Source: Amphiscolops sp. MND2022 (lineage: Eukaryota). From it: a DNA stretch of 64,000 bases. The stretch is taken from the NCBI GenBank assembly GCA_964187785.1, contig OZ076419.1, positions 51,150,001 through 51,214,000 on the forward strand. The letters are read 5' to 3'. This document shows positions 20,101-64,000 of this stretch, one piece after another. The notes below the pieces were generated by a model. The model saw only the letters and a program-made list of their open reading frames with translations. It was not told the DNA's origin and did not search any database. Numbering within the stretch: position 1 is the first letter of the stretch; the number at the start of each line of letters is the position of its first letter. A program made the position numbers and the translations under genes.

Positions 20101-20870
20101 AAGGGGATGATCACACAGTATTGCGTCTTTTTGCTGAGTTGACTAGTGTGCTAGAGGCTTGTGGACTGTTAGCTTCTGATGAGGCGAAGCCAGCAGTTGA
20201 GCAGTTCGGCAGCTACATCGTGGAGAAGCGGAGACAGCACGATTGTTCCAATACATCTGCTAGTGAGATTGTCCATGTGGTGGAGTACTTACTACGTGAT
20301 TTCAGTCTCCAGGCACGTCATCATGTTTGCCGTTTTTTGAAGCTGTGTTTTGTTGTTATGGGGTGTTCTTGCTGAGTTCGTCGGCAGGTAACCTTTGATG
20401 TGGGACGCAGTTAGATCAATGAAGACGTTTATCAAGACTGCCTCCGAATTGTGCAAAGTTACGTTTTGAGTCCTGGGTTTTGTCCATAGTCAGTTTTTAC
20501 AGAGTCAACGATGGGTGCAGTTCGCGATGCCATTGAGAGTGCTGGGATGTTTTCCGTTACGCCTACTTATAAAGTTTGGAAGGACGTTTGTGATTCCGGA
20601 CTGAAATTGTTTGTGGCTCAGTGTAAGAAGTCATATGATATATATTTCTTGGAACGTCGTAAATCTTATGAGCATCATTATGTGGATTGCAATAGAGCAG
20701 TACTACCAGTTCAGATAAGAAGAGTTCCAGGGGCGATGTTCAAAAGTTGAGATCTGTGAGAAAAACAGCATCTTCTTCGGCAAGGCCCTCGGTAATAGTG
20801 CTGGTAGTCAAAAAAAGAAGAAACCACCGAAAACTGATGATCCGGACGTCGTTCATCGAGTAAAGTGATG
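17127..20870 (+). pseudogene. E1 antisense BED-finger/hAT-like cargo gene, decayed
   Basis: ATG 17127 (MGDEESVPP); FHCLVCRRDVAMKAHGSGEFGR.SESDKHW (18270-18360); MAKHLTSFRGYSLQFEK (18858-18910); FGDYRTLLTELIDLLG; and SRVARSLSCFC..ARHHVCRFLKLC (20019-20375). All are collinear with the intact E3 antisense protein. Confidence 0.85.
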
Positions 20871-34600: not shown

Positions 34601-36453
34601 AGAGAACGACGTCTCTGAATTACAGCAATTTCACAGACCTACATCCGGATTGATCTCCTGCTCCTCTGGACACTTCAAGGACAATGCGAGGATACGCCTT
34701 GAACAGAACAATGACATAGTCCTTCGAAACCTGAGAGCCAAAATAGAAGGCGAACCGTTTGATGAAAATGAATTAGCTTCCGATTTCAGATATCAACACT
34801 ACTTACAAAACATAACACGAATCGAGATTAAACACGAAGTTCTCACACGAAAATACTATACAGATACAGGAATGATCTCGCATTATCAAATCCTCTTACC
34901 AGTCCAACTTCTTGAAGAACTACTTCAGGCCCTGCATGGCCATAACTCAAACCATCCAGGAATCACTAAGATGATTCAAGAAGCACGCCAAAAATATTAC
35001 TACCCATGTATGGCTAAATACATCAAAAAATGGGTCAGTAATTGTCAGGTTTGCATTCAAACAAAACGCATTAATAATGACCTCCTCAGAACTGAACTCC
35101 TAAACTGCCCTGAATGGGATCTTGGTCCGGAAGACATCCTGCAAATGGATATTTTGCCAAACCTCCCCCCAAGTGGAGGCTATGATCATATCATCACAGC
35201 AATAGATGTCTTCTCAAGATACTTGTTTGCCTATCCTGTGACCCACATTACTGCTACGGCAGTATCAAAAGTCATTATGGATATATTATGCAAACACACT
35301 TATCTTCCAACAACTATAATCACGGATCTGGGTACTCAATTCAATGCACAAATAACCCACGAAATTGCTGCAGTACTCGGAATTGAACTCAAACATGCTA
35401 CAATGAAACATGCGCAAACAATAGGTCTCCTGGAAAGAACTCATGCCTCAGTTAAAACACACCTAAAAGCCGCGACAGGCGAATATAGGAACAACTGGCA
35501 TAAATATCTTCCTCTGGCAGTCCTAAACCACAATACTACATACCATGCATCACTCGGGTGTGAACCCTCACGAGTTTTTCATGGACGCATACCACACAAT
35601 ATTCTAGACTATAAACTTGGATATAATCCCAATCCAAGATATCAACCGCAAACCGACATAGCAGACGAAACACAAAAGCGCATGAGAATATTTCTAGACC
35701 AAACTAAGAAGAACATCATGCAATCTTACCTTAAATACAAAGCCTACTATGATCGCAAAGCAAACGCAGCACCGCTAGAAACGACGGACTATTGTTACAT
35801 TCTGAACCCAAAAGCAGACACACAAGCGACGAAAATCCCGTTCCGAGAATTTAGATGGTGCGGACCATATAAAGTTGAAAAAATCCTCCCAAACAATAAC
35901 TACATAGTTAGAAGACTTGGAACTAACAAAACAAAACTCCTTCATAGGATTCGTTTGCGCAAATTTACTCCGCAAGCTCCCTTAGCAGACATTTTTGTCC
36001 GTGAAACTGACTGGCAAAAAGATGATCAAATGCCAATAACAAATGATGACTTATACGCACAAGCGTGGAACACGAATTTTGGATCTAGCCCGTTTGACGA
36101 TGATCCAGTAGAAAATTCACAAAATAATGATGATGTTGAATATACTCCGATTCAAATAACAGACGAAAACCGCCCTCCCTCCCCTAGTTCTTCGAAAAAT
36201 AGTGGGGGAGCCCAGTGGAACAGACCACTGAACCTAAAAAAAAACGAATAATGAAAATTTACAAGAGACCCATGATGATGAAGCAGAAAACCCACAAAAA
36301 GACAGAAATATAACACCCGAAATTGATGCCCAAAATATCCCAGAAAACCCTGAAAACATCCCATCGCAAGAAGAACCCATAAATACCCGTAGTGAGAAAT
36401 ACAACTTACGTCCTAACCCCAACCCAAATTACTCTGACACATACATATATTAA
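31630..36453 (+). pseudogene. pol: E2 pol (PR, RT, RNase H, IN) with at least three lesions
   Basis: LIDTGALTSAI, QYVDDIG, MSDASF, LHGHNSNHPG..CQVC, QMDILP..ITDLG..LERT, and YNLRPNPNPNYSDTYIY* at 36453. Lesions: frameshift ~32505, deletion ~33050 (the ILVEFHDIFARHRFDIG segment seen in E3 is missing), frameshift ~36205-36245. Confidence 0.93.
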
Positions 36454-36680
36454 AAACAATACCTACTTCCAGACTCAATCTATCACTAAGAAAACAATTG
36501 CAGAGGAAATTTTCCTTAATACTACCCTCCCATCATGTGTAACTTAACATACGCAAGTCTCTCCTTCACTCTGGAGAACGACTTCATTTCTCGCCCAAAT
36601 AAATACATGGCGGAAAATTTACAAATCTATCATTAGCTCAAAACAAACATAAATAAACAGTTTGCAAACAGATACAACAA

Positions 36681-37789
36681 TTAGTTTTTCTTGCTTTTCA
36701 ATGTCTTGCACCGAACATCTGTTGAACCTCCTTCTTGCTCACCACTGGAGCAACGGTTGAGGAAAACATTAACCCGACTCAGAGTAGGGTCTGGCGACGG
36801 GGAACTGTTGACACTACTACGTCGGCTAACACTAGGAGTGGTGGTGGTAGAGCTAACAGCAGGCTTCTCCAGCCTCAAAACGGCCTTACGATATCCAGCT
36901 TCCAGTTTGCCGACTAACGCGGATCTTCGGGAACTGCTCGCTTTGGAAAAATTCCAGATGGAAAACTTCTTATCAGACAGCAAATCAGTCCCTCGTCCCA
37001 ACAAACGGAAGGCACGACTAATAGCCTTTGAATCTTTAAACAGACTAGAGACATGAGGCACAGTTTGGTAGGAAATTTGCAGGCTAACAACACAAGAATT
37101 AAAAGAGCTCTTATCGGATTCAAGTGTAGGCATTGGTACATCGAATACAGGTGGCACTTCCACCGTCGGTGACAAGCACAAACAAGAATATCTAAACAGT
37201 AACAGAAGTTCCGGCCTCGACTGAATTTCGTAATGAGTAGCTATAAAGGATACCCAATCTTCATACTCAGGAATGTTTTCTGTTCTCATCTTTGAAACGA
37301 ATGACCGGTACTGACTAATCACTCGCACCTTCTCAGTAGAAGAAAGCATCCCAGCAGCCACAAAGTGGGAAGATAGCTTCTCAATAGCTGTGGCGTAAAC
37401 CTCTTCAGGGCTCTCAAAGACTACAGGGGAATCAAATGCGGATAAACCCCTGAGCAAATTAGATTTGACGATCTCGTGGGTCAATAACTGCTTACAAAAA
37501 GATTTGCAGAAGCTAATTGACTGCGCAATAAATTTACTGGGTCGGGATAACTTGCTGGTGAGAACCAAACGATGATAATCTTCATTGAGCACAAATTCAT
37601 CGTTGCTTTTAAAAGGCAATTTAGTAGCATCCAATTCCAGTCCGAGATAAGTATCCCAATCTGAGACGCTACCCAGAATACGATCAGGAAGGATACTCTG
37701 CAGCTGTGAGTAGGTAAACACGGCAAATTGGTTGAATAACCTGAAGCCACTGTCTATCTGTTTTTGGGTCTCTGGGAAGGCTGAATTAT
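36681..37789 (-). CDS. E2 antisense cargo gene, terminal exon (hAT C-terminal-like domain)
   Basis: Acceptor tgtttcag|AT (phase 1), open to stop 36681. SAFPETQKQIDSGFRLFNQF..SNLLRGLSAFD..SRPELLLLFRYSCLCL aligns with E3 exon 5 (TSFVPHLVERRDHGFHIYRQL..SDIVKGMGAFD..TRPHLARIFRLCCLCL). Confidence 0.85.
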
Positions 37790-38048
37790 CTGAAACAACA
37801 TGAGATATTCAAAAAATGAGTGATTAAATACAATAAAATGATCTTCATAACGAGTCAAACCCTACATCAAGAAGAAATAAGTCAGATCAGACCATGACTC
37901 ATGACTGAGCTTACAGTTCGTATTATTCATTGTTATTCTCGCATCAAACAATTGTTACTGCTGGTAACACTGAATACAAGTATTAGACGTCATCCTACGG
38001 TTCGAGGTGAAGCGTATATACGTCACTCCACAAAATTGCTGAGTACAT

Positions 38049-38165
38049 TATGCGTCATTATGCGGTTCAAGGTCTGACGACTATGCGTCACTATGCGGAA
38101 TTGCATAGTGGACTATGCGTCACTATGCGGAATTGCAAATTGATCTATACGTCACTATGCGGAAT
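38049..38165. repeat. Four TATGCGTCA(C/T)TATGCGG-type units at ~32 bp spacing
   Basis: Seen directly; related motifs occur in the E2 LTRs and at 39566-39810. Confidence 0.9.
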
Positions 38166-38247
38166 CGCACGTTAAGCTGATGCGTCTCTTAACAATCAAT
38201 ACAGCGATGTCGTTGACGTGGAAAATAATTGAATAATGCGTTGTAGT

Positions 38248-38941
38248 TTACCCACAAGTCAGAATAAATCCAACAACTGGCTCATTTCCTGCGGTAGCTG
38301 GTCGGGTAATGCTCCCCCATGAATCTTGTTGACTCATTCCTCCTTCCTGGACGGGACTACTGGGAATCAAAGGATTGGGTAATGAACCATCAGTCCCAGT
38401 GACGAACTGACTAAACCTCGGCGAAAGAATACGGGATGTTCCAGGGGCGTCTAAATCCGTAAAAAAACCCTTGAGCAAAACTATGGCAATCCTCATCCAT
38501 GGGTTTCGAAGTAGGAGCTATCTTAAGTTGAGTTGTACCAGGCTCTAGTAACGAACTTTCCTCAGTTCGGAGGGTCTCCTCACGAATTATTGGAGGGCCT
38601 TCGGTCAGCGCCGGCTCACTGGAGTTTTCTTTTGTAGCTCCTTCGTCAATTTGCAGGTCAGGTGTGCTGGGCGATTCTTGAGGAAGTGTTCGATTCAAAG
38701 TTCGTGGTGCGGCAACTCGTAACGCAGTATAGATTTTGTCCGGGGAACTGATAGGAGTAGCTTGAGTTGTTCCTTGTCCAACTGAAACAAGCGTTTTAAA
38801 CAAGCGTTTGAAAATGAAGTAAACTTCGCAAGTGAAACCTGTTCCAATTCTTCTAGAATCCGGACGCGGGGACCGGAAGTTAAAAAAGGAACGGAAATCA
38901 CTTAGAAAACTGAATAGGAAGCGCTTCAAAAGTTTGAACAT
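38248..38941 (-). pseudogene. E2 antisense cargo gene, Ser/Pro/Glu-rich 5' exon relic (probable 1-bp indel in the T7 run at 38461-38467)
   Basis: Overlapping ORFs 38411-38941 and 38248-38496 join at GFF; composition and position match the disordered N-terminus of the E3 antisense protein. Confidence 0.5.
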
Positions 38942-39565
38942 GGCTTTGAAAATTATCTAAGCCTTTTCAATTTTGCAGGCCTGGCCAGTCTCGCAAAAAT
39001 CACAAATTCAAAACAAATTTATCAATCTAAAACCAAAAGAAACGAGTTGGACTAACGGGAAGAAAGTTCAGGCAGTTCTTCAGGGTTCCAAAAATCATCA
39101 CGTTGTAATGGATTGTAGTCCTTCCGTGATCTGCGTTTTTCGCTCTGATCGGCTTCAGAATTCACATCCATGATGAGGCAGTCGTACCAAAACAATTTAG
39201 AACTCCCACGAGAATTATAAAGGCAAAATAAACTCTAATGGGGAGAATACCGTAGTAAGCAATGATATAATCAATCTGGGAAGAAACCAGGGAAGAGAAA
39301 GTTACTGAAAAGTTGACTCTGCAAAGACTAAAATACTTTACTGAAACTGAGACTTAAATGTGACTCTTACAATGAAAATGATCAAGCAGTAAGGCGTGGC
39401 GTAATATAGCAAACAAAGGCAAAAAAGCAAATGAGACAGATTTGCGCAAATGTGCAAAACAAATACTATGATCTGATTGGCTAATTAAATGTCAATCACG
39501 TCTGCCAGCGTGATTGATTGACTCATTATACAACACCAATGCATAGATGTTATTTTGGTTGAAAG

Positions 39566-39810
39566 TATACGGCAGTATGCGGATTGCAGATACAAAGTAT
39601 ACGGCAGTATGCAGATTGCAAAAGAAGAATATGCGGCAGTATGCGGATCGAGTGAAGACGTGTATGCGGCAGTATGCGGATTGTGGAAGAAGAATATGCG
39701 GCAGTATGCGGATCGAATGAAGACGTGTATGCGGCAGTATGCGGACTGTGAAAGAAGAGTATGCGGCAGCATGTGGATTGTGAAAGAAGAGTATGCGGCC
39801 ATATGCGGTT
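39566..39810. repeat. Minisatellite of 8 units (~32-33 bp), core TATGCGGCAGTATGCGG
   Basis: Seen directly. Confidence 0.95.
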
Positions 39811-40643
39811 CTCGCTGCACAACTTTAATAGAATGGATTAATGCAGTTCGTGATTAGAAACGAACAGATGAAGAAGTATTACATAATACTTTGATGAAAA
39901 TTAAAACATTCTCAAAAATAAACACCTGTGTTATTGTTGATGCCTAGTATACATGATACCTAGTCCTATGCTGAATTTAGCTAATTTAGTGGATTCTGAG
40001 CTAAAGGGGTCTTTTAGAAGTTTAGGGACAAAACAATTGAAGTCATTGAACATCATCTGTTAAATCACCAATCCATTCACCCTTTTAAAATGCGGGACTA
40101 GATTTATTACATATTTTTTACTTAAAATTAGTGTTTGAGCAAAATATGTAGTTAAACTAAAGGTGGAATATGTTTCATAACTCTTTTCACCATTTCATAA
40201 AATTGGTCATGAAGAATTAAATAAATTTCCCCCCCCCTAAACTTTTCAAGGAAGCCGCTATGGAAGTTTTTGACAACTTTGATGTCCCGTTGAGTTTTGT
40301 TTGTATATCATTTAATCGCCTAGAAGTTGATGTATTTTCTAGTGATAAATGATGAATCGTTTAAGTGTTAAGCAAAACACCTTTTACGGAAATTGTTTAC
40401 GAATCATCACAAGTGGGTCTCATGACTTGATGTCTAATAAAACCCTTATAAAGGAAAAAGAAGGAATTCAAAAAGCGTGACTCTCAAATTTTTCGCGGGT
40501 TTTGTCAAAAGCAATAGGAGAAAGATCATCAATCACCATATGGTCTTTAACAATTCAAAACTCAGTCGCCTTTTGAAATAACTGATAATTTGTTACCTGA
40601 AGAAACTCACCCATCGATTTCAATCATAACATTTTCTGGCAAA

Positions 40644-41672
40644 ATGAACAAGTTACAATTTAACTTTGAAGAAGACAGCCTTTATTCACCTCTGTCCCCC
40701 GATGTGATCGATATATCCAGTGGTTCCGAAGATGCTTTTTCGATCGCCCCTGGTAACACCCAGCAACTAGAGGAAAAATTCAGAGTAAATCCGGCAGGAA
40801 GTAACTTGAAGGCTGCATTTGTCGGGTCATCTCTGGCGACCTTGTACCCCAACTCAACTGTGCCCCAAGGGAATCATGAAACTACAGTGACAGGAGGCTC
40901 ACAAATAGAAAAGAATCTTATGGAACTGATGAATGAACCCCGGGATGAACCCACAGATTCCCCGGCATCATTCGTCGACAGTGAGTTTGAAGAAAGTAAT
41001 CTGTTTCCCTGGATGGACAACAGAGGCTCGACCCAGGACACAAATCACTATGGTCGGCCATGCGTTAGAGTAATGCCAGTTCTAAGGGAAAACCAGGACG
41101 AGAGTGGAGTTCTGCCGACTCCAATGTCCGAACAAACACCCAATGGAGGCCCCAATCCATCAGTTATGCAGAACACACTAACAAACGACACCATGGAATA
41201 TGAACCGCATGATGTCGGGGCTCAGTTGCAGATTCCGGTTTCGAGGAACATGCAGGGGTTCAGCCTGTCCCCAATGTTGTTCCCAATGCAGATAACGGAC
41301 ACAGCCCAAGAAATGCACCGAGCGCCGTTGATTATGCAGCAAACAGCGCAGATTGGTTTCCCTTTCAATACAGTTCACAGTTCTAATGTGTTACTAATTC
41401 CGGCCAGTGAGAGACAGGGCATCCGACTTCTGCCGACAGTTATGCCGAATGTGGCGGGGTATTGTGAACTATGCGGCAAATGCTTTGACCAAGTTGCATT
41501 GGAGACCCTCGGCCAATACTTGGTTGCCACTGAGTATGAAAGTGAGACTGTTAAAGAAAGAAAAATGAGGTCAAAAGCCTTTATCCACGGGTTCCAGGCA
41601 GCCTTGTTCCTTTTTAAAAATGCGGGACTGTCGCATCCCCCAAGATGCGATGGTTCCGGAGTGCAACTCTAG
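40644..41672 (+). CDS. E2 ORF3: sense accessory protein (342 aa from the first ATG), stop inside the 3' LTR
   Basis: Long open ORF; acidic/Pro/Met-rich body with C-terminal GYCELCGKCFDQVALE..FQAALFLFKNAGLSHPPRCDG. The last 44 nt lie within the LTR (starts 41629). Confidence 0.75.
   Translation: MNKLQFNFEEDSLYSPLSPDVIDISSGSEDAFSIAPGNTQQLEEKFRVNPAGSNLKAAFVGSSLATLYPNSTVPQGNHETTVTGGSQIEKNLMELMNEPRDEPTDSPASFVDSEFEESNLFPWMDNRGSTQDTNHYGRPCVRVMPVLRENQDESGVLPTPMSEQTPNGGPNPSVMQNTLTNDTMEYEPHDVGAQLQIPVSRNMQGFSLSPMLFPMQITDTAQEMHRAPLIMQQTAQIGFPFNTVHSSNVLLIPASERQGIRLLPTVMPNVAGYCELCGKCFDQVALETLGQYLVATEYESETVKERKMRSKAFIHGFQAALFLFKNAGLSHPPRCDGSGVQL
41616..41627 (+). promoter_or_regulatory. Weak polypurine-tract candidate aaaaatgcggga
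   Basis: Purine-rich and 1 nt upstream of the 3' LTR TG, but contains pyrimidines. Confidence 0.35.
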
Positions 41673-43148
41673 AACGGAACAAGTACTGGAACCTTTTCTA
41701 TAGACTCACACAAACTCTAATAAACTCATTGTGAACATGTTTTTGTACTTCGTTACTTTCAAAAGGTCATGTAAATATCATTTCTATACTTTGCTTACCA
41801 TGAAGAAACACCCATTATAGTGCTTATGTACCTTGGATTCCTGATTAAGAGCCCCTATTTTCATCACAAATCTGATATTTCACCGCTTAATCATATGAAC
41901 TATAAGTTTCCGATGCATCCAAATCAACTCCGTAATAATTTGTGCTTTAGCATAGTACTATTATACGGTACTATGCGGATCGAGGTGTGACGTATACTCG
42001 TCACCATACGTTTTTGGTAATACCATTATGCGGCATTATACGTTTCAAGGCGTGATGTATATGCGGCATTAGACGTCTTTTGTAGTAACATTATGCGGCA
42101 TCTAGCGGATCGAAAAGGAATGATTATACGTCATTATGCGGTTCTCGCAGGACTTATTAAATGATCACAGGACGCGTTCTAACAGCATTTAGAAAGTGTT
42201 TTCAGCCATATTTGGAAGTTATTTTGAGATATTTTTCCAGGGTTTTGCAGTTTCTTGTCCATAACCACTTCCCATGATGTCATGTAAATGTGCTATTTTT
42301 ATAATATGATGTCATCTGACGCAATTCTATTTTGTGCTGGTTTTCATGATGATTCTAATAAAAAGGAGTGTCATGATTTTTAAATATATTTCGTTTTGTA
42401 ATATAATTGGAAGAATTCATAACAAGATTTGCCTTTCATCAAAAGCAGTTGCTTTTCAAATGATTGTAAACCTCTTCGTTTTCATCACTGTAAACTCTAC
42501 AACCTTGTTCTTTTGAGATATCAAAGTTAATTCAAATTCTTCCCCAAAAGCCAGAAAACATTTTCACTTGAGACGAGATGGGAAATAGACGTAATAAAAG
42601 GTCCAGGAGACTAGAAACTCCTTCTCCAGAGAGGAGTGTAGAAAGGACCCAAATAGAAACGCCAAATGCAGGTAATATAACTTTAACTAATCATAATACT
42701 GTTGTCCAAGAAAATTTAGGTGAAAACAACATAGGAGTACAATTGGTTGAACCCAGTCAAATCAGCACCGAGATTCAAGCTTGGACCCAAATATTTGAAC
42801 AAAAGAACAACGATAGAATAGAGAAAATGAGAGAAGAAATGGACAATAAACTTGAAACCATTCTCAGAGAAATAAAATCCAATAAAAGCGCTTCAGTAGC
42901 AACAAACCCAAGGTCAGAAACTAATGAAATGCAAGATCCTCAACCATCGGGATCCAGAACAATCAGGTCTATAGGAGTTCATGCATCCAACAATGAGAAC
43001 TCAGAAACTGAAGACGAGGATTTTCCTCTTAAGGCTTCGAAAGCAAAAGACTTACGACAACCCGCAAAACCTATATATGAGTCAGATGTAGATGTTACAA
43101 TTCATTCGGACGAAGAATCTGATGCGGAGCCGATAGAGGATTATCACA
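41629..43148 (+). repeat. E2 3' LTR (1520 bp), carrying a copy of the Gag N-terminal ORF
   Basis: Near-identical to 28969-30526 and followed by the TSD atatc. The ORF at 42578 repeats the first ~190 aa of Gag. Confidence 0.96.
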
Positions 43149-51593: not shown

Positions 51594-53092
51594 TGTCGCA
51601 GGCGGCCGCCTGTGACGGAATATTATACCAAGTTGGACCCGAAGACGATGACACTAATCCCGGACCGGGTGTTTTGCCTATTTGAGAGAAAAACTCCGCA
51701 ATACGTTAATTATTTAGTTAACAATCTCCTCATGCATTTTAGTTCATTCATTCTTATTCATCTCTACATGTAAATATGAAGTCTTATTAATGTGACTCAA
51801 GGTCATTTTGACGGCATGAATAATTATATTTTGGTGCAATCTTATGTAAATTAGTTGTTACATCGCATTAATAATAATAATGTGAACTAGTACCAAAAGG
51901 TGCAAAACGCTGTACAAGCAGTTAATTTGATTGACGTTAATAATAACAATAGAAAGCAAGATGACTATTCAAGTGAATGGAAACGCGTTCAACTGGTATG
52001 CTGCTGCCGTCTAGTTGATGCGTAGTCACTTCGCTTCTAACCAATCACGGCGCTACATTTAGTTATAGTTCAATGCCGTCATGCGGACGTTAGGTCCAAT
52101 TAGTTAACGCATGTAGTGTTAAATCTGTAGTTGCATGAAAATCACCGTTAGCATGTACCTGTTATTAACCAGTATGTTGCTTCTATTTATAGGACCTATG
52201 ACGTGTAGTCATATGTCACCTCCGTTGCTATATTTAGAATTGTGACGTAATAGTTATTTTTAATAATGATGTCATTACTATTTTTACCCAATGACACCCT
52301 AAATATTGAGTGTCATGCTGTAGTTGCTATATATATGCAAAATTCCAGTAGGGGATTCATTCATTGTGATAACCTCAATATAAACCGTTCTGATATACAC
52401 TTTCGATTCAACAATCTATTATTGAACAAAACCATCTTTTGATATGCCTTCAACTAGAAGACAAAAGGCGAAAGAGAAACGTTCAAGACAATCTGACATA
52501 ATGTCTGATATTGAAAATCTAGATGTGATGCTAGGAAATTACTCAAACAGCGAAATTAGGGACCAAAACACGGTAGATCAAATAGAAATTGACCCTGAGT
52601 CAAGTAGACGGCAACAAGGTTTCAGTCATGAAGAAAGCAACTATAGATCCCTTTTGAATACAAATTTGAGTGAGAATAGTGAAATTACAGTAGAAACTAG
52701 CAGAGCAATTAGTTCAGAAATTTCTTCACAGATGTCAAGGAAATTGGAAGAAATGAAATCTGACCTAAATTCCCATATTATGGAGGTAATAAACTCTGCT
52801 ATTGATGAAAAAATACTACCGAGCATTGAAAATGTCATAGTAAATCACAGGGAGTGTAAAAACGCAAAATTGGACCTTCGGTCAGATGGACGGCATCCGA
52901 GTAGAAACGTCCCTATGGACGAGAATTTGGACCTTGGGTCATATGGACGGCATAAAATTAAATTTGGCCAACAGGTCCAGGACTCAAGAGAGAATTTTCC
53001 TAGACTAAGCAAGACAACAAATAACCATTCAAACCATCAAATGGAATGTTCGGGTGATTCTGAACAGAGTGAAAATGATGAAGGTTATGACA
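51594..53092 (+). repeat. E3 5' LTR (1499 bp)
   Basis: Starts TGTCGCAGGC (same TGTCGCA start and LS....CDG coding remnant as the E2 LTR) and ends GGTTATGACA before the PBS. The partner LTR is outside the window. Confidence 0.75.
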
Positions 53093-54240
53093 TGGTGACA
53101 GGAGCCAACCTTACTCCACATGTAGTCCCTGAATTTCTGACCGGACGTCCCACGCAGTCCAGAAATAAAATTCCCCATCAACAATGCGTCAACGATGACA
53201 CATTAGATACCACTCTCCCGGCACAAATTCCCTCAAACCCTATCAATGACCGGGAAATGCAGCCCCAAACACCTTTAGACCCCATAAACAGACTTGCCGA
53301 TGTCATTATGGGAATGAACAACAAATCATCAGCACAAACACTGATGGTACGACCAGTCAATACTGCCACACTCACATTTGACGGCAAATCTGAAAAATTT
53401 GAACTGTTTGAAGACCTTTTTCACACGGTGATAAAGATGCAACCCGAGATGACGGAAGCAATGAAAATTAATCACTTTCATTCACTGTTGCGCAAAAATG
53501 CCCTGCAAACCTTCCGCAACATCAGTTCAGCAAATAGACAAACCTTAGAAGACGTACTAGCTGTGTTTCGTAGGAAATATGTCAAACCTGAATCCCAGGC
53601 AACTGCCAAACATAAATGGCACAAATTGGTATTTGACCCAAACACGATGAAATTGCCCGATTTTCTCGAGGAACTCAATCAGGGCGCCGAAAAAGCCTTT
53701 GGCGAGCACGCACAAGCCATGATTGACAGTCTGCTATACGCAAAACTCCCACCGAAACTCAAACGTTCAGTCAACATGGCGCGATTAGAGAATGCCACCT
53801 ATGAAGAAATTGTCACTCATCTCGAACGAGAACTGGAGTTGAACGGACTTGAGGAAGGTGATGACATTCCCGTTCCCACAATGTCTACAGCCCCGACAGC
53901 CACACGACCGGGTCAAGGACTCCTTTCATCAGGCATTGACCCAGGAATAACTTGCAACTACTGCAAAAAACCTGGACATGTCAAAGACGATTGCCGAAAA
54001 CTAAAACGAAAGGAAGAGCAAAAACGCAATGAAGGCTCGAGTACCAAAAAAGAGTACCCAAAGTGCCCGACTTGTGACAAAACCAATCACCCGGCGGAGA
54101 GATGTTGGAAAGGCGCTGGAGCCCACCTCAAGCCCAAAAACCTCAAATTGGATAGTCCAAAGGATGACGACACGACCAGTAGTCGTGATGACCCTACCAA
54201 TAAACCCACAACTTCTATCCTTAAAAACTCAAAAAACTAG
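52444..54240 (+). CDS. gag: E3 Gag (598 aa), initiating inside the LTR
   Basis: SEKFELFEDLFHTVIKMQP..FRRKYVKPES; knuckles CNYCKKPGHVKDDC and CPTCDKTNHPAERC. Confidence 0.96.
   Translation: MPSTRRQKAKEKRSRQSDIMSDIENLDVMLGNYSNSEIRDQNTVDQIEIDPESSRRQQGFSHEESNYRSLLNTNLSENSEITVETSRAISSEISSQMSRKLEEMKSDLNSHIMEVINSAIDEKILPSIENVIVNHRECKNAKLDLRSDGRHPSRNVPMDENLDLGSYGRHKIKFGQQVQDSRENFPRLSKTTNNHSNHQMECSGDSEQSENDEGYDMVTGANLTPHVVPEFLTGRPTQSRNKIPHQQCVNDDTLDTTLPAQIPSNPINDREMQPQTPLDPINRLADVIMGMNNKSSAQTLMVRPVNTATLTFDGKSEKFELFEDLFHTVIKMQPEMTEAMKINHFHSLLRKNALQTFRNISSANRQTLEDVLAVFRRKYVKPESQATAKHKWHKLVFDPNTMKLPDFLEELNQGAEKAFGEHAQAMIDSLLYAKLPPKLKRSVNMARLENATYEEIVTHLERELELNGLEEGDDIPVPTMSTAPTATRPGQGLLSSGIDPGITCNYCKKPGHVKDDCRKLKRKEEQKRNEGSSTKKEYPKCPTCDKTNHPAERCWKGAGAHLKPKNLKLDSPKDDDTTSSRDDPTNKPTTSILKNSKN
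53093..53106 (+). promoter_or_regulatory. E3 primer-binding site TGGTGACAGGAGCC
   Basis: Identical to the E2 PBS; follows ..TATGACA. Confidence 0.88.
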
Positions 54241-57200
54241 ATTTGCCACGACTCCATATTAATGAAAAATTACGTATCAGACAATATATAATATCTGATC
54301 CTCCTACTATATATTATACTGAATATCACTCTTCAATTAAAGAAACTTCATCAGCTGACTGGCAGCAGCAGGTGAAGCATTTGCCTACTCACTTACACAA
54401 ACCGGACCTTCAGTCCGACAGACAGCACTCTAATACTACGACCATTCGCCCCCTTCCCCTAATTGATAACTACAACCCATATTATCCTGACCCGGACTTC
54501 GGATTCGACCCCTATTGGGACATTCAAATCTACAACCAACATCAGCTACATTTCTACAAAAACTTTACCAAAAACATTGCAGATATCGAACATGATCAAC
54601 CCCATATTGATCAGATGCTGAACACAAAACTATCCTCGGCCTCTGTTGACCCCTGGCAAAATGTGTGGATTAACACCAATTCACCAATCCAGGAGGAAAC
54701 AACCGAGCAACTTCCACACAATGGACCTTTGGTCACATTGACGGCAACAGTGGAAGAACGCTTTGTGAATACGCTGATCTCACGAAACGGTGAACCTGAC
54801 TACGTCCCGTTGACGACCAACTTGGGACTCAAATACAAAAGACGGATGCTCTACTTCCCCATGGATTTTGGCGAACTAACTTTAGATGGCCTTGTAGACA
54901 CGGGAGCCCTATCTAGCGCTATCCCAGAAGCTGATCTACGTAAAATCCGATTGTTAGCCCCTCAGTCAATAATTAAAGAGGGCCCGGCACCCAACTTCCA
55001 GATTATGGTAGCCAATGGACAGCTGGAGACTCCAAAGAGCACTGTTGAACTCAAATTCGAAGTCGGGGACATCGATTTCCATGAGATCTTCATCGTTATG
55101 GAAAAACTCACAAGTCCGTTAATTGGTCTCTCGTTCCTGCAACGGAACAATACCATACTGGACATGCGTCAAGGAGTTTTAAACTTCCCTTTCTTCTCCA
55201 TGCAATTGAAAACAGCTGACCACAAGTACACTAATGTCATGGAACCTATCTGTGCACGGGAGGACATAACTATTCCCCCCAACGACAGACATATGGTTTC
55301 CATGTTCTCACAACTATATGACGACACAAACGTCACTGGAATTATTCAACCGAGCAACGACCTTGCAGAAGATGGTGATATAACCTTCTGCGCCGCTCTA
55401 GTCACGCTGACCCAAGGTCAGGTATCAATCCATGTCAATAATTTCACTGACCAACCGTACACCCTCAAAAGAGGTGCGCACATTGCCAATTTCTCTGTCC
55501 TCACACCAGAGCAGATGAAATACGTCAAACCCATTGATCCTGTGACCACTTGGCACCTTTTAAAGGATAACCCGGAAAATGCTGCCTATTATGCCAGTAG
55601 CCTGATCAAATCTCCGAAAACTAGTGATGATAGTGAGAACTATTGGTTCCCTACTCCAGAAGAACCAGGAGATCCCCAAACTCACACACCAATACAACAA
55701 AGAATCCTTAGGGAACTACGAAATCTCCAAGATTTAGAGAAACTCAACCCTCTCGATGACCTCGAATCGCGAAAGCAATTCCTTGCTAACTTCGACTGGA
55801 CAGACTCGACGCTAAATCCAGCCGAAATTGCCCAAATTGAAGAATTACTTGTTGAATTTCACGATATTTTCGCACGACACCGCTTTGATATAGGTATGAA
55901 CGAGGACTTCAAGGTCACTTTGACCCCTAAAGATGACTCTCCTGCCTATAGTCAAAGCTTACCTACTCCTATCAACCTCAAAGAAGATATCCTTGTAGAA
56001 CTAGCACTACTACATCGATATGGGATTATAACAACTCTCCCATTTTCCAAATATGCAAGTCCCATCTTTGCCCAGAAAAAACCTAACGGCAAACTTCGAC
56101 TCCTGGTTGACCTCCGAAAGATCAACAACCTGATTTCTGACGATTACATCAACAACAACCATCCTGTCAGCACACTAACGGATGCTGCGCAGCACATGGC
56201 AGGTAAACGATTATTTTGCAAACTTGATTGTTCTCAAGCATACCACTGCCTTCAAATGGCTGACCAGAGGTCAATCGAGATGCTGGCATTCAATTTTGCC
56301 AGCAGAACCTTTGCCTATCGTAGACTTGCCCAAGGTCTAAGCAGAGCGCTGTCCGCATTTTCGAGCTTTATGCGCGAATATCTGGATAAAGTGATAAAAG
56401 CTGACCAATGCGCTCAGTACGTAGACGATATTGGGATAGCTGCAAACGACGCTACTCAGCTCATCAACAACCTTCGAGCAACGTTCCAGTGCATCAGGAC
56501 CGCTGGCCTCAAACTAACGATGCACAAGTGCCATTTCGGAGCCAAGGAAATCGACTTCCTGGGACGTACCATCACTCCTGAAGGGGTGCGACCACAACGA
56601 CCCAGGGTCCAGAATTTCTTGGAAAAGACCAAATTCCCTAAATCCAAGAAAGCCCTTCAAAGATACTTGGGATTCCTGAACTACTACCGTAACTACATTC
56701 CTAGACTCTCAGAAAAACTCACACCGTTTTTCAAGTTATTGAAAAGTGATGCCAAAGTCATGGTGACACCCGATCTGTTAGAAAAATTCACCGAGATCAA
56801 CAAAGCTCTTGACCGATGTTGTGAACTGGCGCTCAAACAACCTCTACCCGACAAACAGATAGCCCTGATGACAGACGCTAGTTTTTCGGCAGCAGGTTAT
56901 GCAGTTCTCATCGAGGACGATCCGATGGAAAAATATACTTCGACGCGAAAAGCCTTCGCACCTGTAGCATATGGATCCAAGACCTTTAGTCCAGCCCAAC
57001 TGAAGATGTCCATTTATGCCAAAGAATTCCTAGCAATATTCTTTGCATTCAAAGAGTTTGGCCATATCTTCTGGGGGACCCCGAAACCGGTGATAATACT
57101 AACAGACAACAAGTCAGTCACTCGCTTTTTTCAAACAAAAATCATTCCACCCACATTGTGGAACGCGTGTGACTACGTTATGCAATTCAGTTTCACAATA

Positions 57201-59420
57201 GCCCATATACCTGGCAAAAACAATACTGCCGCTGACTACTTGTCACGTCTAGAAATCTGTCCCAAAGAAAAACTCATACTCCGGATACGAGAAGATATTT
57301 CCACCACACCAATCGAACTCAACGTCCAATCAGCGGGAGTTACTGAAGAGGAACAGATCTTCTATACGGACGATGATGAAGAAACAGAAGAACAAATCTG
57401 GAAACGCAAACAAGACGCCAGGTCAAACCCAATGAATCAACCTCCTGATATTTTGTTAGATCATCTTAGCACTCATGATAATACACAATTCCAAACTCAA
57501 AATATACAAAAACTGGCAAAACCAACCACCATGGCTATAGAACAACAGAACGATCTTATCTTACATCAATTACGACTCAAACTGCAAAAAGAAGAATACT
57601 CTGAAACCATCTTACAGCAAGATTCGCGCTACCGACATTACTGCCGTCAAATTGACCGTCTGTCCGTACATGATGACATCATTTTCAGAGACTACTACGA
57701 TGAAACAGGCAGTGTCCAATTCCGCCAGGCATTATTACCGAAACATCTAGTCACAGAATTACTTCAATCACTACATGGTTCCGCGAACAAACACCCGGGA
57801 ATCTCAAAAATGCTGCACGAAATTCGACGAAAATACTACTTTCCTGGAATTGCCAAAACTGTCAAAAAGTGGGTCCAAGGGTGCGAAATTTGTATAAAAG
57901 ACAAAAGAATCAATAATGCATCCATAACACCTGAATTACTCAATTTACCTGAATGGGATTTTGGCCCAGAAGATGCCTTACAAATTGACATTCTGCCCAA
58001 CTTACCCCCCAGTGGAGGTTATGAAAATGTCATAACGGCTCTGGACGTGTTTTCGAGATATCTTTTTGCCTACCCAGTAACGGACGCTTCGGCCATCAAT
58101 ACGGCAAAGGTCATTATTGATATCATGACAAAACATTCCTACTTGCCGACTACACTCATCACCGACAAAGGCACTGCCTTTACGTCCAAACTACTAGAAG
58201 AAATTACCAAAATTTTAGGAATTCACCTTCGGTGCGCGACCACAAAGCATCCGCAGACGATAGGCAAACTAGAACGCACTCATGCCAGCCTCAAGGGCAA
58301 CCTTAAAATGGCATCAGGTGAATACAGGCGTCAATGGCACAAATATCTCCCATTGGCCGTCCTTAATTATAACACGACCTATCATTCAAGTCTTGGATGC
58401 GAACCCACCCGAATTTTTCACGGAAGAGTACCCTATAATATCTTAGACCATCGGTTAGGATTAAACCCTAACCCAAAGATCACTCCAACGACTGATTTTG
58501 CTGAAGAATTTCAAAGACGCACGCAAATATTAATTGATCAAACAAAGAAAAACATCATGCAATCATATTTAAAGTACAAGGAATATTATGACCGAAAGGC
58601 TAAAGCAGCTCCTCTACAACAAGGAGATTTTTGCTTCATTTTACAACCTCTAGCTGACCATCAAGGCTCTAAAATTCCTTTTCGTGAATTTCGTTGGATC
58701 GGACCGCACGTCATTGAAAAAGTTTTACCTAACGACAACTATATTGTTCGTAAACTTAGTACTAACAAAACGCAGCTATTACACCGAATACGCCTTAGAA
58801 AATACACTCCAAATACTACCCCACCAGACATTCGTCCCGAAGGAAATTTACAAGCAGACGATGAAATTATTATTCCACAGGATGATCTGTACATCATTTC
58901 ATGGGAAACCAATTTTGACGATTTCGCTCCTAATTCTGAAAATCGGACTGTTACTAATGAACTCCCTACCTATTCCGATGAACAGGATGCCATAATCACA
59001 GATTTGGACCTACGGTCCACGCGACGGCAAACAAATACTGACGCCGCTCACGCTGATGATACTGATAGTGACTCACGTTCAAACGAAATAAACGAAGCGG
59101 ACCTTCGGTCCGCGCGACGGCAATCAAATACTGAGGCTGATAATACGGAGCAGTACTCAAGAAATGCACACAACGAAGACCGTCAGTCCGCTAGACGGCA
59201 ACAAAGGACCGAATTTGAAAACGATGAATTGACAAATCAGGACCTACCTAGAGATGAAAATTCAGAATTTTCAACTTCTGGGGGGAACGATACAACCGTG
59301 CCCGATGTATTAATTGAAGAAACTGATGATTGTGTTGTAGAAAATGAAAGTCCTAGGGGAGGGAGATATAACTTACGCCCCAATCCTACCCCCAACTTTA
59401 CTGACGAATACAGATACTAG
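54225..59420 (+). CDS. pol: E3 Pol: protease, dUTPase-like insert, RT, RNase H, integrase (GPY/F)
   Basis: Uninterrupted 1725+ aa ORF: DTG at 54897, YVDD at 56418, TDASF..EFLA..TDNKS..ADYLS, HHCC (LHGSANKHPG..CEIC), QIDILP..ITDKG..LERT, WIGPH. Confidence 0.98.
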   Translation, partial: KLKKLDLPRLHINEKLRIRQYIISDPPTIYYTEYHSSIKETSSADWQQQVKHLPTHLHKPDLQSDRQHSNTTTIRPLPLIDNYNPYYPDPDFGFDPYWDIQIYNQHQLHFYKNFTKNIADIEHDQPHIDQMLNTKLSSASVDPWQNVWINTNSPIQEETTEQLPHNGPLVTLTATVEERFVNTLISRNGEPDYVPLTTNLGLKYKRRMLYFPMDFGELTLDGLVDTGALSSAIPEADLRKIRLLAPQSIIKEGPAPNFQIMVANGQLETPKSTVELKFEVGDIDFHEIFIVMEKLTSPLIGLSFLQRNNTILDMRQGVLNFPFFSMQLKTADHKYTNVMEPICAREDITIPPNDRHMVSMFSQLYDDTNVTGIIQPSNDLAEDGDITFCAALVTLTQGQVSIHVNNFTDQPYTLKRGAHIANFSVLTPEQMKYVKPIDPVTTWHLLKDNPENAAYYASSLIKSPKTSDDSENYWFPTPEEPGDPQTHTPIQQRILRELRNLQDLEKLNPLDDLESRKQFLANFDWTDSTLNPAEIAQIEELLVEFHDIFARHRFDIGMNEDFKVTLTPKDDSPAYSQSLPTPINLKEDILVELALLHRYGIITTLPFSKYASPIFAQKKPNGKLRLLVDLRKINNLISDDYINNNHPVSTLTDAAQHMAGKRLFCKLDCSQAYHCLQMADQRSIEMLAFNFASRTFAYRRLAQGLSRALSAFSSFMREYLDKVIKADQCAQYVDDIGIAANDATQLINNLRATFQCIRTAGLKLTMHKCHFGAKEIDFLGRTITPEGVRPQRPRVQNFLEKTKFPKSKKALQRYLGFLNYYRNYIPRLSEKLTPFFKLLKSDAKVMVTPDLLEKFTEINKALDRCCELALKQPLPDKQIALMTDASFSAAGYAVLIEDDPMEKYTSTRKAFAPVAYGSKTFSPAQLKMSIYAKEFLAIFFAFKEFGHIFWGTPKPVIILTDNKSVTRFFQTKIIPPTLWNACDYVMQFSFTIAHIPGKNNTAADYLSRLEICPKEKLILRIREDISTTPIELNVQSAGVTEEEQIFYTDDDEETEEQIWKRKQDARSNPMNQPPDILLDHLSTHDNTQFQTQNIQKLAKPTTMAIEQQNDLILHQLRLKLQKEEYSETILQQDSRYRHYCRQIDRLSVHDDIIFRDYYDETGSVQFRQALLPKHLVTELLQSLHGSANKHPGISKMLHEIRRKYYFPGIAKTVKKWVQGCEICIKDKRINNASITPELLNLPEWDFGPEDALQIDILPNLPPSGGYENVITALDVFSRYLFAYPVTDASAINTAKVIIDIMTKHSYLPTTLITDKGTAFTSKLLEEITKILGIHLRCATTKHPQTIGKLERTHASLKGNLKMASGEYRRQWHKYLPLAVLNYNTTYHSSLGCEPTRIFHGRVPYNILDHRLGLNPNPKITPTTDFAEEFQRRTQILIDQTKKNIMQSYLKYKEYYDRKAKAAPLQQGDFCFILQPLADHQGSKIPFREFRWIGPHVIEKVLPNDNYIVRKLSTNKTQLLHRIRLRKYTPNTTPPDIRPEGNLQADDEIIIPQDDLYIISWETNFDDFAPNSENRTVTNELPTYSDEQDAIITDLDLRSTRRQTNTDAAHADDTDSDSRSNEINEADLRSARRQSNTEADNTEQYSRNAHNEDRQSARRQQRTEFENDELTNQDLPRDENSEFSTSGGNDTTVPDVLIEETDDCVVENESPRGGRYNLRPNPTPNFTDEYRY
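54231..54237 (+). promoter_or_regulatory. E3 -1 frameshift slippery site A AAA AAC
   Basis: Canonical heptamer directly before the gag TAG; the pol frame (-1) is open from 54225. Confidence 0.82.
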
Positions 59421-59647: not shown

Positions 59648-60777
59648 TTAAGTGTCTTTAACAGATGAACTAGAAGGCAATTCGCTATCCGATGGCCGCT
59701 TGACAGGAGAGTTCTTGGTACTGGAGGAAGGAAGACTTTTCGAGCTTTTGGTGCATCTCAGTCCCTTGAATCGTAGCCTTCTAGTGTCTTTTTTCTTCCC
59801 CTTCAATGCAGGCTGTAAAGCAGTCCGAATTTCCGCCCAGTTGAATAAATCCAAGCCGTCCCAGGGACAGTAGGTATCAGTGAAAGCAGTACCACCAAAC
59901 GTAGGCTCAAAAGCAAGGAAACCCTTGATTGATGCAGGAGTGGTAAGAGCTTCGATGCTGCGCCCAACATTTGTGAAGTAAGACTGGACGGGCAAAATTG
60001 AATCCACTAGCTGGCATTTGGGGTCATCGGTACGCACAGACCCAAATTTCACTGTAGGCATGGGGGTATAATCCTGGTCCAAGCAAAGGCAACAGAGTCT
60101 AAATATCCGTGCCAAATGGGGACGCGTCAACAGAGTAACATGGCCCGAAATGAAGGACACTGCGTCAATGATAATGACTCTGGGTTGATCGAGGTCAGGA
60201 AACTCTTTACGGAGCTCATCAAGGAACGATAGGTATTCCTCGGTGTAGATTGACTCGTCGTCAGCTTGACAATACCCTCGTGAATGAAAACTGCGGAAGA
60301 GCTGTTTGAAGCAGTATAAAGCCTGACTCAAGGGAGAACGGAAAATTACATCTAGATCAAAGGCACCCATACCCTTCACGATGTCCGAAGTTAATTGCAA
60401 GTTGCTCTGTGCGGCTTGAAATAAATACGCAACGTAACTGCGGCCCAACCGTCCAAACTCCTCTTTATTGGCTTTTATTAATTTGGGCAAATTGGCTCTA
60501 CTAGCTTTCTTGTCGCTCAGCTCCTTCTCAGCTTTTACTTTGCAGGCAGTATTGAGACGCCGCTCCAGTTTAGATCTAACAATGAAATCGGTCACGGATA
60601 AAGCCTGGGCATCTGAAATTGACACATTGAGAATTCCAGTCAAGTCGGATTCTAATGGCAAACTCTTGGACTTGATACAGCGTCTACCAAGTTTAAACAA
60701 GTACTGGCAAAGTTGGCGGTAGATGTGGAACCCATGGTCACGCCGCTCAACCAGGTGTGGAACGAAACTGGTAGTAT
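59648..60777 (-). CDS. E3 antisense cargo gene exon 5
   Basis: Acceptor ttgcttgtttag|AT (phase 1); in frame with ORF 59648-60700 to the stop. Confidence 0.85.
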
Positions 60778-60847
60778 CTAAACAAGCAAAGTATAAAGTA
60801 AAGTTAGCACTATCGCATGAGCTGACTAGCCATCAAGTCTTACTAAC

Positions 60848-60929
60848 AATCTCTGACTAAGCGATGAAACAATTCTAGTCGGCAAAGGAACATCTCGTCC
60901 TGTATCATGGCCCGCTCCAAGTTTTGGGG
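60848..60929 (-). CDS. E3 antisense cargo gene exon 4
   Basis: tgttgttttag|CCC..GAT T|GTTAGT; reads PQNLERAMIQDEMFLCRLELFHRLVRD; bridges phase 0 to phase 1. Confidence 0.65.
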
Positions 60930-61000
60930 CTAAAACAACAAGTAATACCGTCAAAATGGAGAAGGTTGGACTGAAGGTCATTTCGACGGCAGGAACTTAC

Positions 61001-61135
61001 TTGCTTGCGAACACCCATCATTTCATGCGGAGGAGCATGCGTGTTCAAGTACTCGAGTACTTTAGGCCAATTGGCAAGCAGTTCTTGACACAGAGTTGGG
61101 AGTGTAGCAAGTTCAAGTTGACAAGTGCGCACAGC
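61001..61135 (-). CDS. E3 antisense cargo gene exon 3
   Basis: caattttccag|GCT..AAG CAA|GTAAGT; reads AVRTCQLELATLPTLCQELLANWPKVLEYL. Confidence 0.8.
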
Positions 61136-61208
61136 CTGGAAAATTGAATTTATTGAGCCACATGAAAATTTTAATCCTAGGAATATATCTCTAAAGAAGG
61201 ATTATAAC

Positions 61209-61694
61209 CTTGGCGAGGACAGGGGTCATTAGCGTCCAGTCACAGTCCAGACATCCACCCAAGAAGACAATCAGATACCTCAACACTGAGTGAAAGTCAA
61301 TGCGCCCGAAAACACTATAGCTCTCCCTGTGCATCAGTCGGGCTATAGAGAAGTCCTCGAACCTGAGAGGGCGCTGGAGTCCATATTTGGAGTACGGGGA
61401 ATTATCGACCAACTGTATAGTTTCAAGAGTACTTCCAGAACAGCATACGAGATTTGGACTTGTCGAGAGCGCAGCCATGACATGACTAATCAGGCTCAAT
61501 TCTGCTGAGGACTGGCTTAAAACTCTTCCAGTTCTTTTGAGGTAAACTCGGCACAGTTCGCCATTTCTCCAGAAACGTATGAAGACAAGAAGGAACACCC
61601 CCTGCTTCACAAACTCCAAGGAGTATTCTCCTGAGGCAACCACATGTTCAGCAATGTCGCGTATGACTTGGAGGAAAAGGTGATGGAAGAGTGC
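61209..61694 (-). CDS. E3 antisense cargo gene exon 2
   Basis: attgctttcag|GCA..GCC AAG|GTTATA; reads ALFHHLFLQVIRDIAEHVVASGEYSLEFVKQG..RIDFHSVLRYL. Confidence 0.82.
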
Positions 61695-61787
61695 CTGAAA
61701 GCAATACGAAAATTAAGTGTTGTACCAAGGCATAACTGCACAACTTATGTAGACACAAGGTCAATGGGACCAGAAAAGGTTACTTAC

Positions 61788-63914
61788 CGACAAACGTTCC
61801 TTGCTCCAGTCGAAGTCAGTAAAAAGTGATTGGTGATTCACTATGACGCCGACATCACGCCAGAAGTTTCTGAGGGTACTGATGTCACCGAAACTCCGGA
61901 GATAATTGCCAAGAACTGATATTTGAATCTTAGCACGACTATCGGATGAAGATGCCATGTAGTCCGTCCCACGGATATAATTTTCGTAAAAAGGCAACTT
62001 CTCTCCAATGTCCACTAACGGTTCGTCAATAAAGTGCTCTAACTCTTGCTCAAGCTGATAAGGTGTAAGCAACTTTCCATCTCTCCCTCGGACATGGTGT
62101 CTGACTGTACCGGTAACTGGGTCTTCAACCGAGAGGTGCTCATACCTCCACCGTTGGTCTTTCCGGAGGTGCCGTTCGGATTGATGGTGGCGTAAAATTT
62201 CTCTAGCGCCTCTACCGTAGATCGAAATATTGCCCTTACAGATCTGGCAATAAAATTTGTAAGGGTTCCAGCGAGGGTCTACTGGGCCAGACACAAAAGT
62301 TTTGGTCCACTCCATGCCCTTGAAGTAGGACTCCTTCATTATTTTGCACCCTCTGGGGACTTGATGTTTGCTCGTCCCAACTTTCCGTGCAGGAGTTTTC
62401 CGTGCCTTTTTTGATTTGGCAGGTTTAGTCCTTTCAGCAATGGCTTCTGCTTTCAACCCAGCTAGGGTTTGGGCTCCGGGACTTTCCAACTGGTTAGTTC
62501 GCTCTTGGGACCCTGGGTCACTCCGACTGCATCCAGGTGGTCCTTTTGGAGGAGGAGTAACTGGCTGACTTTCCAAATCAGAATGTTCATAGGAGTAACC
62601 GAGGCTGGAGAAATTATCGTCGCTCCTCAACGCTCCACTAGTATCACTTCCGTGGCCCGACAGCAGGCCCGAACGTGAACCGACACTACTAGCTCTACTC
62701 CCTGGTCTTCGGGTCTTGGTAACGGAATCAGGGGTTGGATGGGAACCTCCAAGACTGAGTCTACTGGCCTGCTGGATTAGGCTCTCCATGGTCTTTAGTG
62801 AAGTTTTGACGGCTTCATCCGCCACGGCTTTCAGGATACTACACACTTGGCCCTCATTTAGTGCTAAAGTCTGATGACCTGCAGGCAAATGCACTGGACT
62901 GGAAGATTCAAAGAATTCCTTGATTAGGGCACGGCTGCTAGCACCCAATCGCGGCTCCTGGGGAGCTGTTTCAGGGAAGTCTACGGAAGTATTGCTGGCG
63001 GAATCGAAGACTCTGAACACATTAGTACTCGCTGGATCGCACAAGGCTTGAGCAACAGTTGACCCGACTGCCCCTTCTGAGTCTTGACCAGTGCTACTGG
63101 AAATCCTAGCAGGGGTTCCTTGTTTGCCTCTGTGTTCGTAACTGGAGGTTTGGACATCATCTGTGAACTCACCTTCACTCTCAGAAACTGACGGACACTC
63201 AGTCCCTTGCGCAGCACCAAACTCTCCTCGTGTCTCATTGATGCTGAGTTTCAGGGTTTTCGCTTCAGGCGGACCGTACCTGGACCGTAGGTTACTCTTC
63301 AACGGTACTTCTGGGGAATCCAGGAAAGCAACTCTAGGATAGGGATCTGTATCCATGTCTTCCAAGCCTGCTTCGCCCTGCTGGGGAGCCAATTCCATTG
63401 TTGCACTTTCACTGAACTTTTCAGAGTTGCCGTCGGATTGACCATGGGTCCCCGCCTCTGAAGAACAGCCCAATTGTCGCCACTTCCTGGCAATATACTC
63501 GCCACAACTCTCATCAGTACTGCTACTCTCAGCTTGTAAAGTGCCGGACATAAAAAGAGGAGTGGTACAAGCTTCGGACGGGGTTTTAGAAGGCCCCCCT
63601 AACTCTTGTTGGGAATTGTTTTGGGCCAAGTTCTCATCTGACACATCCCCCACCGTTGCTTCAGCCTGTGGATTATCGTGGGAAATCTCAACTGCTTCTT
63701 CATGCACAGTGGACCCGGATTCTCCTATGACGGAACCACGGATTGAGGCATTCACAGTAGGCTGATTCTCAGTAGTTGCTATTGCAGTAACAAATGAATC
63801 GTTACTGTCCATCTTTTCATCATCAGCTCCACGCCGGGGAGGTTGGCCATTTGATTCATTGCCTAAACGGAATGAAATAAATAAACGCGGTTCACTTCCA
63901 GAATATGAATCCAT
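61788..63914 (-). CDS. E3 antisense cargo gene exon 1 (disordered N-terminus + BED-type zinc finger); start could be the ATG at 63812
   Basis: 709 open codons ending TCG|GTAAGT; FYCQICKGNISIYGRGAREILRHHQSERH. ATG 63914 sits just after a GTAAG and before a ccgtttag acceptor, so it may be intronic. Confidence 0.88.
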
Positions 63915-64000
63915 CTTACCGCTTCAAATCAAATTCTTCCGGAAGTTCATTTGACACAATGTTCATGCTGACGACAAAACATTTCACGATGGAGGAAGTA

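Follow-up and report, generated by a model that had tools for sequence, protein, structure and literature searches.

We propose that Ty3/gypsy elements of this genome carry an old antisense cassette, i.e., a spliced, protein-coding gene lying against pol, which likely derives from a disarmed hAT-type transposase. Taken as a whole, this is our best explanation, and we give it a probability of about 0.75. Comparative alignment shows the predicted splice junctions to be conserved across five element families. The analysis is based on a stretch of 64,000 nucleotides (the window, to which coordinates refer unless a locus is named) and on genome searches of the 1.07-Gb assembly.

Element E3 and its antisense gene

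The window holds three related LTR elements, E1, E2, and E3. E3 is a young ~16-kb element running from 51594 to the window-equivalent position 67574, with LTRs of 1,499 nt (TG..CA) showing 2 differences between them and a 5-bp TSD (TCTAC); the 5' LTR lies at 51594..53092 (+) and the 3' LTR outside the window, at L031:7076-8574 (window-equivalent 66076-67574, +). Its assignment to Ty3/gypsy is based on the two LTRs, the TSD, a TGG-starting PBS-like site that begins at 53093 within gag (+), and gag followed by the PR-RT-RH-INT order of Pfam matches on pol. The gag gene (52444..54240, +) starts within the LTR and has a DUF1759-like match and a CCHC knuckle, and the uninterrupted pol (54225..59420, +) encodes protease, dUTPase, RT, RNase H, and integrase in the gypsy order.

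Several other features of these elements and their surroundings were observed. The gag frame (52444-53110) continues past the end of the LTR and over the PBS-like site, and the 3' LTR thus holds ~216 gag codons; the 18-nt PBS-like sequence is identical in E2 and E3. The dUTPase domain sits between protease and RT, at residues 342-423 of pol (~55250-55490). A sense ORF with a CxxC motif enters the 3' LTR in both E3 (L031:6304-7167, +) and E2 (40551-41672, +); these ORFs, of 287 and 373 codons from stop to stop, respectively, are divergent from the antisense gene and gave zero matches in a Pfam scan. Between E2 and E3 lie exons of a TRPM-like host gene (43280-43510 and ~47870-48100, -), the former matching a SLOG domain (E 2e-12) and the latter apparently frameshifted; the SLOG exon, of TRPM type, indicates an animal genome. 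Another repeat family (14934-16090, 27698-28860, and 50880-51587), possibly a preferred insertion target, immediately precedes E2 and E3, lies next to E1, and interrupts locus L115 as well. Finally, positions 3000-15000 form a long tract that is skewed toward C and T and contains degraded ORFs; it probably represents one more old element, on the minus strand.

The antisense gene of E3 lies on the minus strand. Exon 1 (61788..63914) encodes a long low-complexity N terminus followed by a CxxC..H..H zinc finger, and exon 2 (61209..61694, 486 nt) encodes a predicted RNase H-like alpha/beta domain; between them is intron 1 (61787-61695, GTAAGT..TTTCAG, 93 nt, phase 0). Intron 2 (61208-61136, GTTATA..TTCCAG, 73 nt, phase 0) leads to exon 3 (61001..61135, 135 nt), intron 3 (61000-60930, GTAAGT..TTTTAG, 71 nt, phase 0) to exon 4 (60848..60929, 82 nt), and intron 4 (60847-60778, GTTAGT..GTTTAG, 70 nt, phase 1) to a last exon (59648..60777) predicted to be all-helical. 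Splicing the four introns out in silico leaves a single frame that stays open for 1,319 codons, from the ATG at 63914 to the stop at 59648. Since 4,284 alternative four-intron GT-AG chains likewise give an open frame, this frame alone is weak proof, and it is the comparative test that decides.

Among 18 E3-family copies of the genome, 72 to 100% identical in the last exon, the GT..AG ends of introns 1, 3, and 4 were retained in 18/18; for intron 2, the count was 17/18, owing to one deletion. Length changes were seen in 48 of 72 intron cases, mostly not in multiples of three, compared with 5 of 90 exon-segment cases. When the deleted copy and two near-duplicates were excluded, the terminal GT/AG dinucleotides were invariant in 8/8 cases among nine divergent copies, against 13/255 in the interior, and exon 2 identity by codon position was 0.83/0.92/0.43. 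Conserved GT..AG ends, a free interior, and a restored frame are the hallmarks of spliceosomal (U2) introns. On this comparative evidence, we consider it near certain that the four antisense introns are real, at the very positions where the sequence-only reading had placed four short canonical introns. Their shortness holds for E3 (70 to 93 nt) but does not extend to the E2 family, whose intron 4 spans 445 to 774 nt and contains tandem repeats.

At the other end of the gene, the donor at window-equivalent 64059 is conserved and points to one more 5' intron, which would follow a 16-nt first coding exon and cover 63863..64000 and beyond (-) as an alternative to the start at 63914. This probable intron showed GT..AG ends and an open frame in 16/16 sequences, with a length of 191 to 197 nt; the frame from the ATG at 63914, a possible alternative start, was intact in 14/16. 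A shorter candidate at 63919-63863 was dropped because its donor is not conserved. Just upstream of this ATG, a strongly conserved noncoding block (63920-64000 and beyond, in L031) includes the palindromic CTTCCGGAAG and is possibly an antisense promoter.

Shared introns, selection, and exchange of the cassette

E2 (28969..43147, +; TSD ATATC) is older than E3, with frameshifted gag and pol and with LTRs (~28969-30525 and ~41629-43147) that are 96.9% identical. Its last exon (36681..37789, -) is homologous to that of E3, with the acceptor ending at 37790, and is preceded by a remnant (37790..38956, -) composed of the 3' part of a long intron 4, a 32-nt tandem array (38079-38169), a deletion point near 38268, and the 5' part of exon 1. 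A deletion of ~2 kb, which begins in exon 1 and ends in intron 4, has left only the last acceptor visible in this copy. The sequence-only reading had noticed that the acceptors of E3 (60777) and E2 (37789) share the ag|AT phase and an equivalent protein position; both are indeed phase 1 and fall in the same alignment column. Its claim of one intron position shared between elements was correct as to the sharing but understated the extent, which amounts to four positions with the E2 family and three with the E1 family.

In the E2 family, the acceptor corresponding to 37790 was retained in 20/20 further loci, and the upstream exons with all four introns were present in 19 of 20 other loci. Exon 2 was 486 nt long in 18/19 of these, and exons 3 and 4 were 135 and 82 nt long in 19/19, exactly as in E3; all eight splice dinucleotides were canonical in 16/19. 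Related 32/65-nt tandem arrays occur in this family within intron 4 (that at 38079-38169), upstream of the antisense gene (39561-39808), and in or beside the LTR (~41940-42140). In the window, the E1 element lies on the minus strand with a degraded antisense gene (18100..20800, +) in which the intron-1 donor (18700) and the intron-4 donor (19587) are recognizable. In the E1 family, introns 1, 3, and 4 and the 82-nt exon 4 recur, and intron 2 is precisely missing, with a fused exon of 621 nt (486 + 135) in 18/19 aligned loci. Intron 2 is present in E3, E2, and two further families, for which the 486/135/82 layout was the best model in 5/6 loci; a third further family (P0139) may have intron 2, as profile breaks suggest, the enumeration having covered introns up to a set maximum length.

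An alignment of intron positions across family members had been put forward as a check. In a joint alignment limited to intact models (copies with stops, frameshifts, or noncanonical ends being left out), the junctions occupied identical columns in every model, i.e., 14/14 for E3, 15/15 for E2, and 10/10 for E1 with its three introns. Protein identity between families is only 20 to 22% (~22% for E2 versus E3), and shared intron positions at this level of divergence show that the cassettes of the different families go back to a common ancestor. The last-exon profile yielded 951 clusters at 50% identity. One homologue searched in this assembly at E 1e-60 gave no match, and the lineage may thus extend to other genomes.

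The gene was antisense to pol in 40/40 loci checked, always between pol and the 3' LTR, and introns were present in very young, dispersed copies; introns therefore do persist in an antisense gene of a retroelement, as originally claimed. No intact processed copy appeared among the 682 matches listed, the top candidates of six last-exon searches, in which the longest open frame was 510 aa. Median dN/dS was 0.090 (E3), 0.040 (E2), and 0.079 (E1 family) for unsaturated pairs only (5/91, 3/105, and 5/45, respectively), showing the predicted cassette protein to be under purifying selection. With such values (0.04 to 0.09) and a constant antisense orientation, the gene belongs to the aORF-3R class of antisense ORFs of LTR elements. 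The junctions could be real and yet serve mainly an antisense RNA, acting through dsRNA or small-RNA self-regulation, the protein being secondary. Such a role has been discussed in the literature for plant aORFs, and multiexonic noncoding antisense RNAs are described for Arabidopsis Copia elements in a preprint (bioRxiv 2024.04.02.587720). Nevertheless, the strong protein-level constraint and the zinc ligands invariant across families (three ligands of the CxxC..H..H motif in 39/39 models) make an RNA-centered role highly improbable, and we retain a selected protein gene.

The E3, E2, and E1 families are each monophyletic in both the RT tree and the cassette tree (the latter built from the antisense protein with FastTree), which supports a deep common descent of the cassette with the element families. 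Within families, the picture is different. In the E3 family, 11/21 pairs had an RT distance at four-fold sites below 0.15 but a saturated cassette distance above 0.5, and 5/45 pairs of the E2 family combined near-identical RT with a saturated cassette; the sampled E1 family gave no such signal (0/28 pairs). In five copies, high identity to E3 breaks off at 59530, 59680, 59698, 59737, and 59750, respectively; one copy regains it at 64679. Altogether, these comparisons show that cassettes have been exchanged within families among near-identical pol backbones and inherited vertically only between families. The long vertical inheritance deduced by the sequence-only reading is thus borne out between families, by shared positions and monophyly, but not within them.

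The pol-side breakpoints are scattered over ~220 nt (59530 to 59750), partly inside the coding end, which fits template switching better than transposition, and cassettes would then move by switching between copackaged RNAs. Movement as a block between backbones would also be expected of a nested DNA transposon, still mobile or passively carried, in which introns need no special explanation, and the genome contains many free hATs (150 PF05699 matches). Such a hitchhiker would hardly keep one place and orientation in 40/40 loci, a dN/dS below 0.15, and breakpoints so spread, some of them coding. Moreover, its catalytic acids are not conserved (see below), and at two loci none of the 25 longest inverted repeats listed per locus brackets the gene, a search that very short TIRs could escape. 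We therefore regard a hitchhiking transposon as very unlikely and favor a cassette retained by the element and exchanged by template switching.

Predicted protein and its origin

A weak C2H2 match was the only Pfam match of the antisense protein, which presents the N-terminal zinc-finger feature of hATs through its CxxC..H..H motif, a resemblance at the level of the zinc ligands rather than of the BED type. Pfam scans of the antisense gene found no PF05699, and scans of exons and alignments found no PF04195. PDB sequence searches with the protein gave 0 matches, and profile searches and hhalign against the free hAT ORFs of this genome found nothing above reversed controls. Full-length spliced proteins of 658 to 2000 aa were not found, which is weak evidence, and no named host homologue was found.

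A resemblance to hATs had been seen by eye before any folding. The order and spacing of zinc finger, RNase H-like strands, and helical insertion are similar to those of free hATs of this genome. Folding was done on single exons. The exon 2 model (mean pLDDT 53, low confidence) shows a helix, three strands, a helix, and a strand, i.e., an RNase H-like core, for which Foldseek ranked Hermes second (E 0.012, TMq 0.39). In VIA, exon 2 aligned with Hermes over 104 residues from Hermes residue 149 (Z 7.7, rmsd 2.7), the longest alignment among the rows listed, below actin/Hsp70-like and CoaX folds (Z 8 to 9.4). The last-exon model (pLDDT 69) aligned with Hermes residues 367 to 609 over 184 residues (rmsd 6.8) with a Z of 4.5 that is within noise, and all other VIA rows aligned 91 residues or fewer; Foldseek and realignment found nothing significant for this exon. 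Foldseek gave no match at E 0.001 for the exon models. The two Hermes matches, each weak alone, are colinear with the gene order.

Catalytic positions were placed by eye according to the residue roles that we take to hold for Hermes. No acidic residue is common to all families at the equivalent strands, and the position equivalent to the TRW motif is not conserved; the protein thus lacks the hAT DDE triad and TRW as mapped. From the predicted folds, the case for a hAT transposase devoid of catalytic residues is weak to moderate, and activity as a transposase appears very improbable.

The source of a real spliced antisense gene could instead be a host gene or another RNase H-like protein. The negative sequence tests against hATs and the higher VIA Z scores of the actin-like and CoaX folds speak for such a capture. 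It is countered by the independent and colinear recovery of Hermes from two separate exon models, by the hAT-like order of zinc finger, strands, and helical insertion, and by the failure to find a named host homologue. We consider a non-hAT source unlikely, and on the modeled folds and motif order the antisense protein is probably of hAT-transposase ancestry. As a separate observation, one free hAT-like ORF (L170:6040-7566), whose zinc finger is of the Spin-doc type, lies beside a BEL/Pao-like pol.

As regards function, we give roughly even odds to the antisense protein, as modeled, being a nuclear zinc-finger DNA-binding accessory factor that acts on the element's own DNA, in transcription or antisilencing. 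The 32/65-nt arrays of the E2 family would be candidate binding sites, an idea weakened by the fact that no comparable tandem array was found in the E3 family. More tentatively, and with somewhat more doubt than confidence, a retrotransposon lineage may have domesticated a cut-and-paste transposase, introns included, in antisense orientation and may now swap its diverged DNA-binding alleles as specificity cassettes. Near-identical backbones would then exchange disarmed alleles, e.g., for sequence-specific self-activation or antisilencing. Old cassette alleles swapped among young backbones suggest a testable arms race.

Intron retention and comparison with known systems

The sense-strand ends of the four intron segments are CT..AC. 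In the genomic (+) RNA, these segments would therefore not be spliceosome substrates and would be copied intact by reverse transcription, while splicing of the gene likely takes place on a separate antisense transcript and the genomic RNA would stay unspliced. LTR ends and PBS are needed for retroelement replication, and the antisense mRNA, which would lack both, should not be reverse-transcribed as a genome. The CT..AC ends together with an antisense mRNA unfit for replication would account for intron retention. Antisense orientation is sufficient for introns to be kept, though perhaps not necessary. We propose that an ancestral gypsy element received a backwards insertion of an intron-containing hAT, which was then kept. 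The cassette would represent a natural, multifamily case of a multi-intron protein gene passed on through reverse transcription, in which a single intron (intron 2) was cleanly gained or lost while the gene resided in a retroelement. Its conserved exon-intron structure would also date the cassette where the sequence is nearly saturated.

The statement that sense-strand introns are lost on reverse transcription of spliced RNA was too absolute, as spliced env-like messages of barley Bagy2 (PMC7264820) and spliced gag messages of Arabidopsis Copia elements (bioRxiv 2024.04.02.587720) coexist with unspliced genomes. The same preprint reports multiexonic antisense transcripts of Arabidopsis Ty1/Copia elements that are conserved across related LTR families; they resemble our case in being spliced and conserved but differ in being noncoding, LTR-initiated, and from Copia rather than gypsy elements. 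HBZ of HTLV-1 is a spliced protein-coding antisense gene of an LTR retroelement that encodes a regulator; it belongs, however, to a retrovirus, encodes a bZIP protein, and has alternatively spliced first exons, its start being in the 3' LTR (PMC1459196). By comparison, the E3-type gene has several internal coding introns kept across families at ~20% identity and starts ~2 kb before the 3' LTR. Given the HBZ, Copia, and Bagy2 precedents, intron retention, antisense or sense, is not a new principle. In the literature covered, from which subscription papers are largely missing, neither a multi-intron coding antisense gene nor a hAT-derived gene has been described in a gypsy element.

The hAT transposases (Hermes, PDB 2bw3/4d1q/8edg) and domesticated hAT proteins share with the E3-type gene a zinc finger and, by weak to moderate structural matches of the predicted folds, RNase H-like strands and a helical region in the same order. 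In the latter, no DDE triad, TRW motif, PF05699, or TIRs were seen, and it is housed in a retrotransposon instead of the host genome. A functional analogy, and only that, is offered by the VANC antisilencing factors of VANDAL transposons, which are encoded by captured accessory genes serving the element; VANC is an unrelated MAIN-like protein with a DNA transposon as host (PMC13547354).

The closest positional counterparts are the antisense ORFs known between pol and the 3' LTR in plants and fungi, whose origin is called obscure and whose introns go unmentioned in the accessible portions of the two sources (PMC7264820; PMC11963269). There, the Retand paper does not contain the word "intron," and the aORF review only urges that antisense and spliced transcripts be looked for. 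The plant aORFs, including TRP28 of Retand, have the same position and orientation, are conserved and present in most copies, lie near tandem arrays, and have a proposed nuclear or DNA-binding role. Unlike the present gene, TRP28 has a PF04195 domain; here, the host is an animal and at least four spliceosomal introns are conserved. Both aORF papers report that no similarity to other TEs was found and considered, without being able to support it, an origin such as the one that is probable here. The cassette may thus show concretely how an antisense accessory ORF can arise, namely, from a nested DNA transposon.
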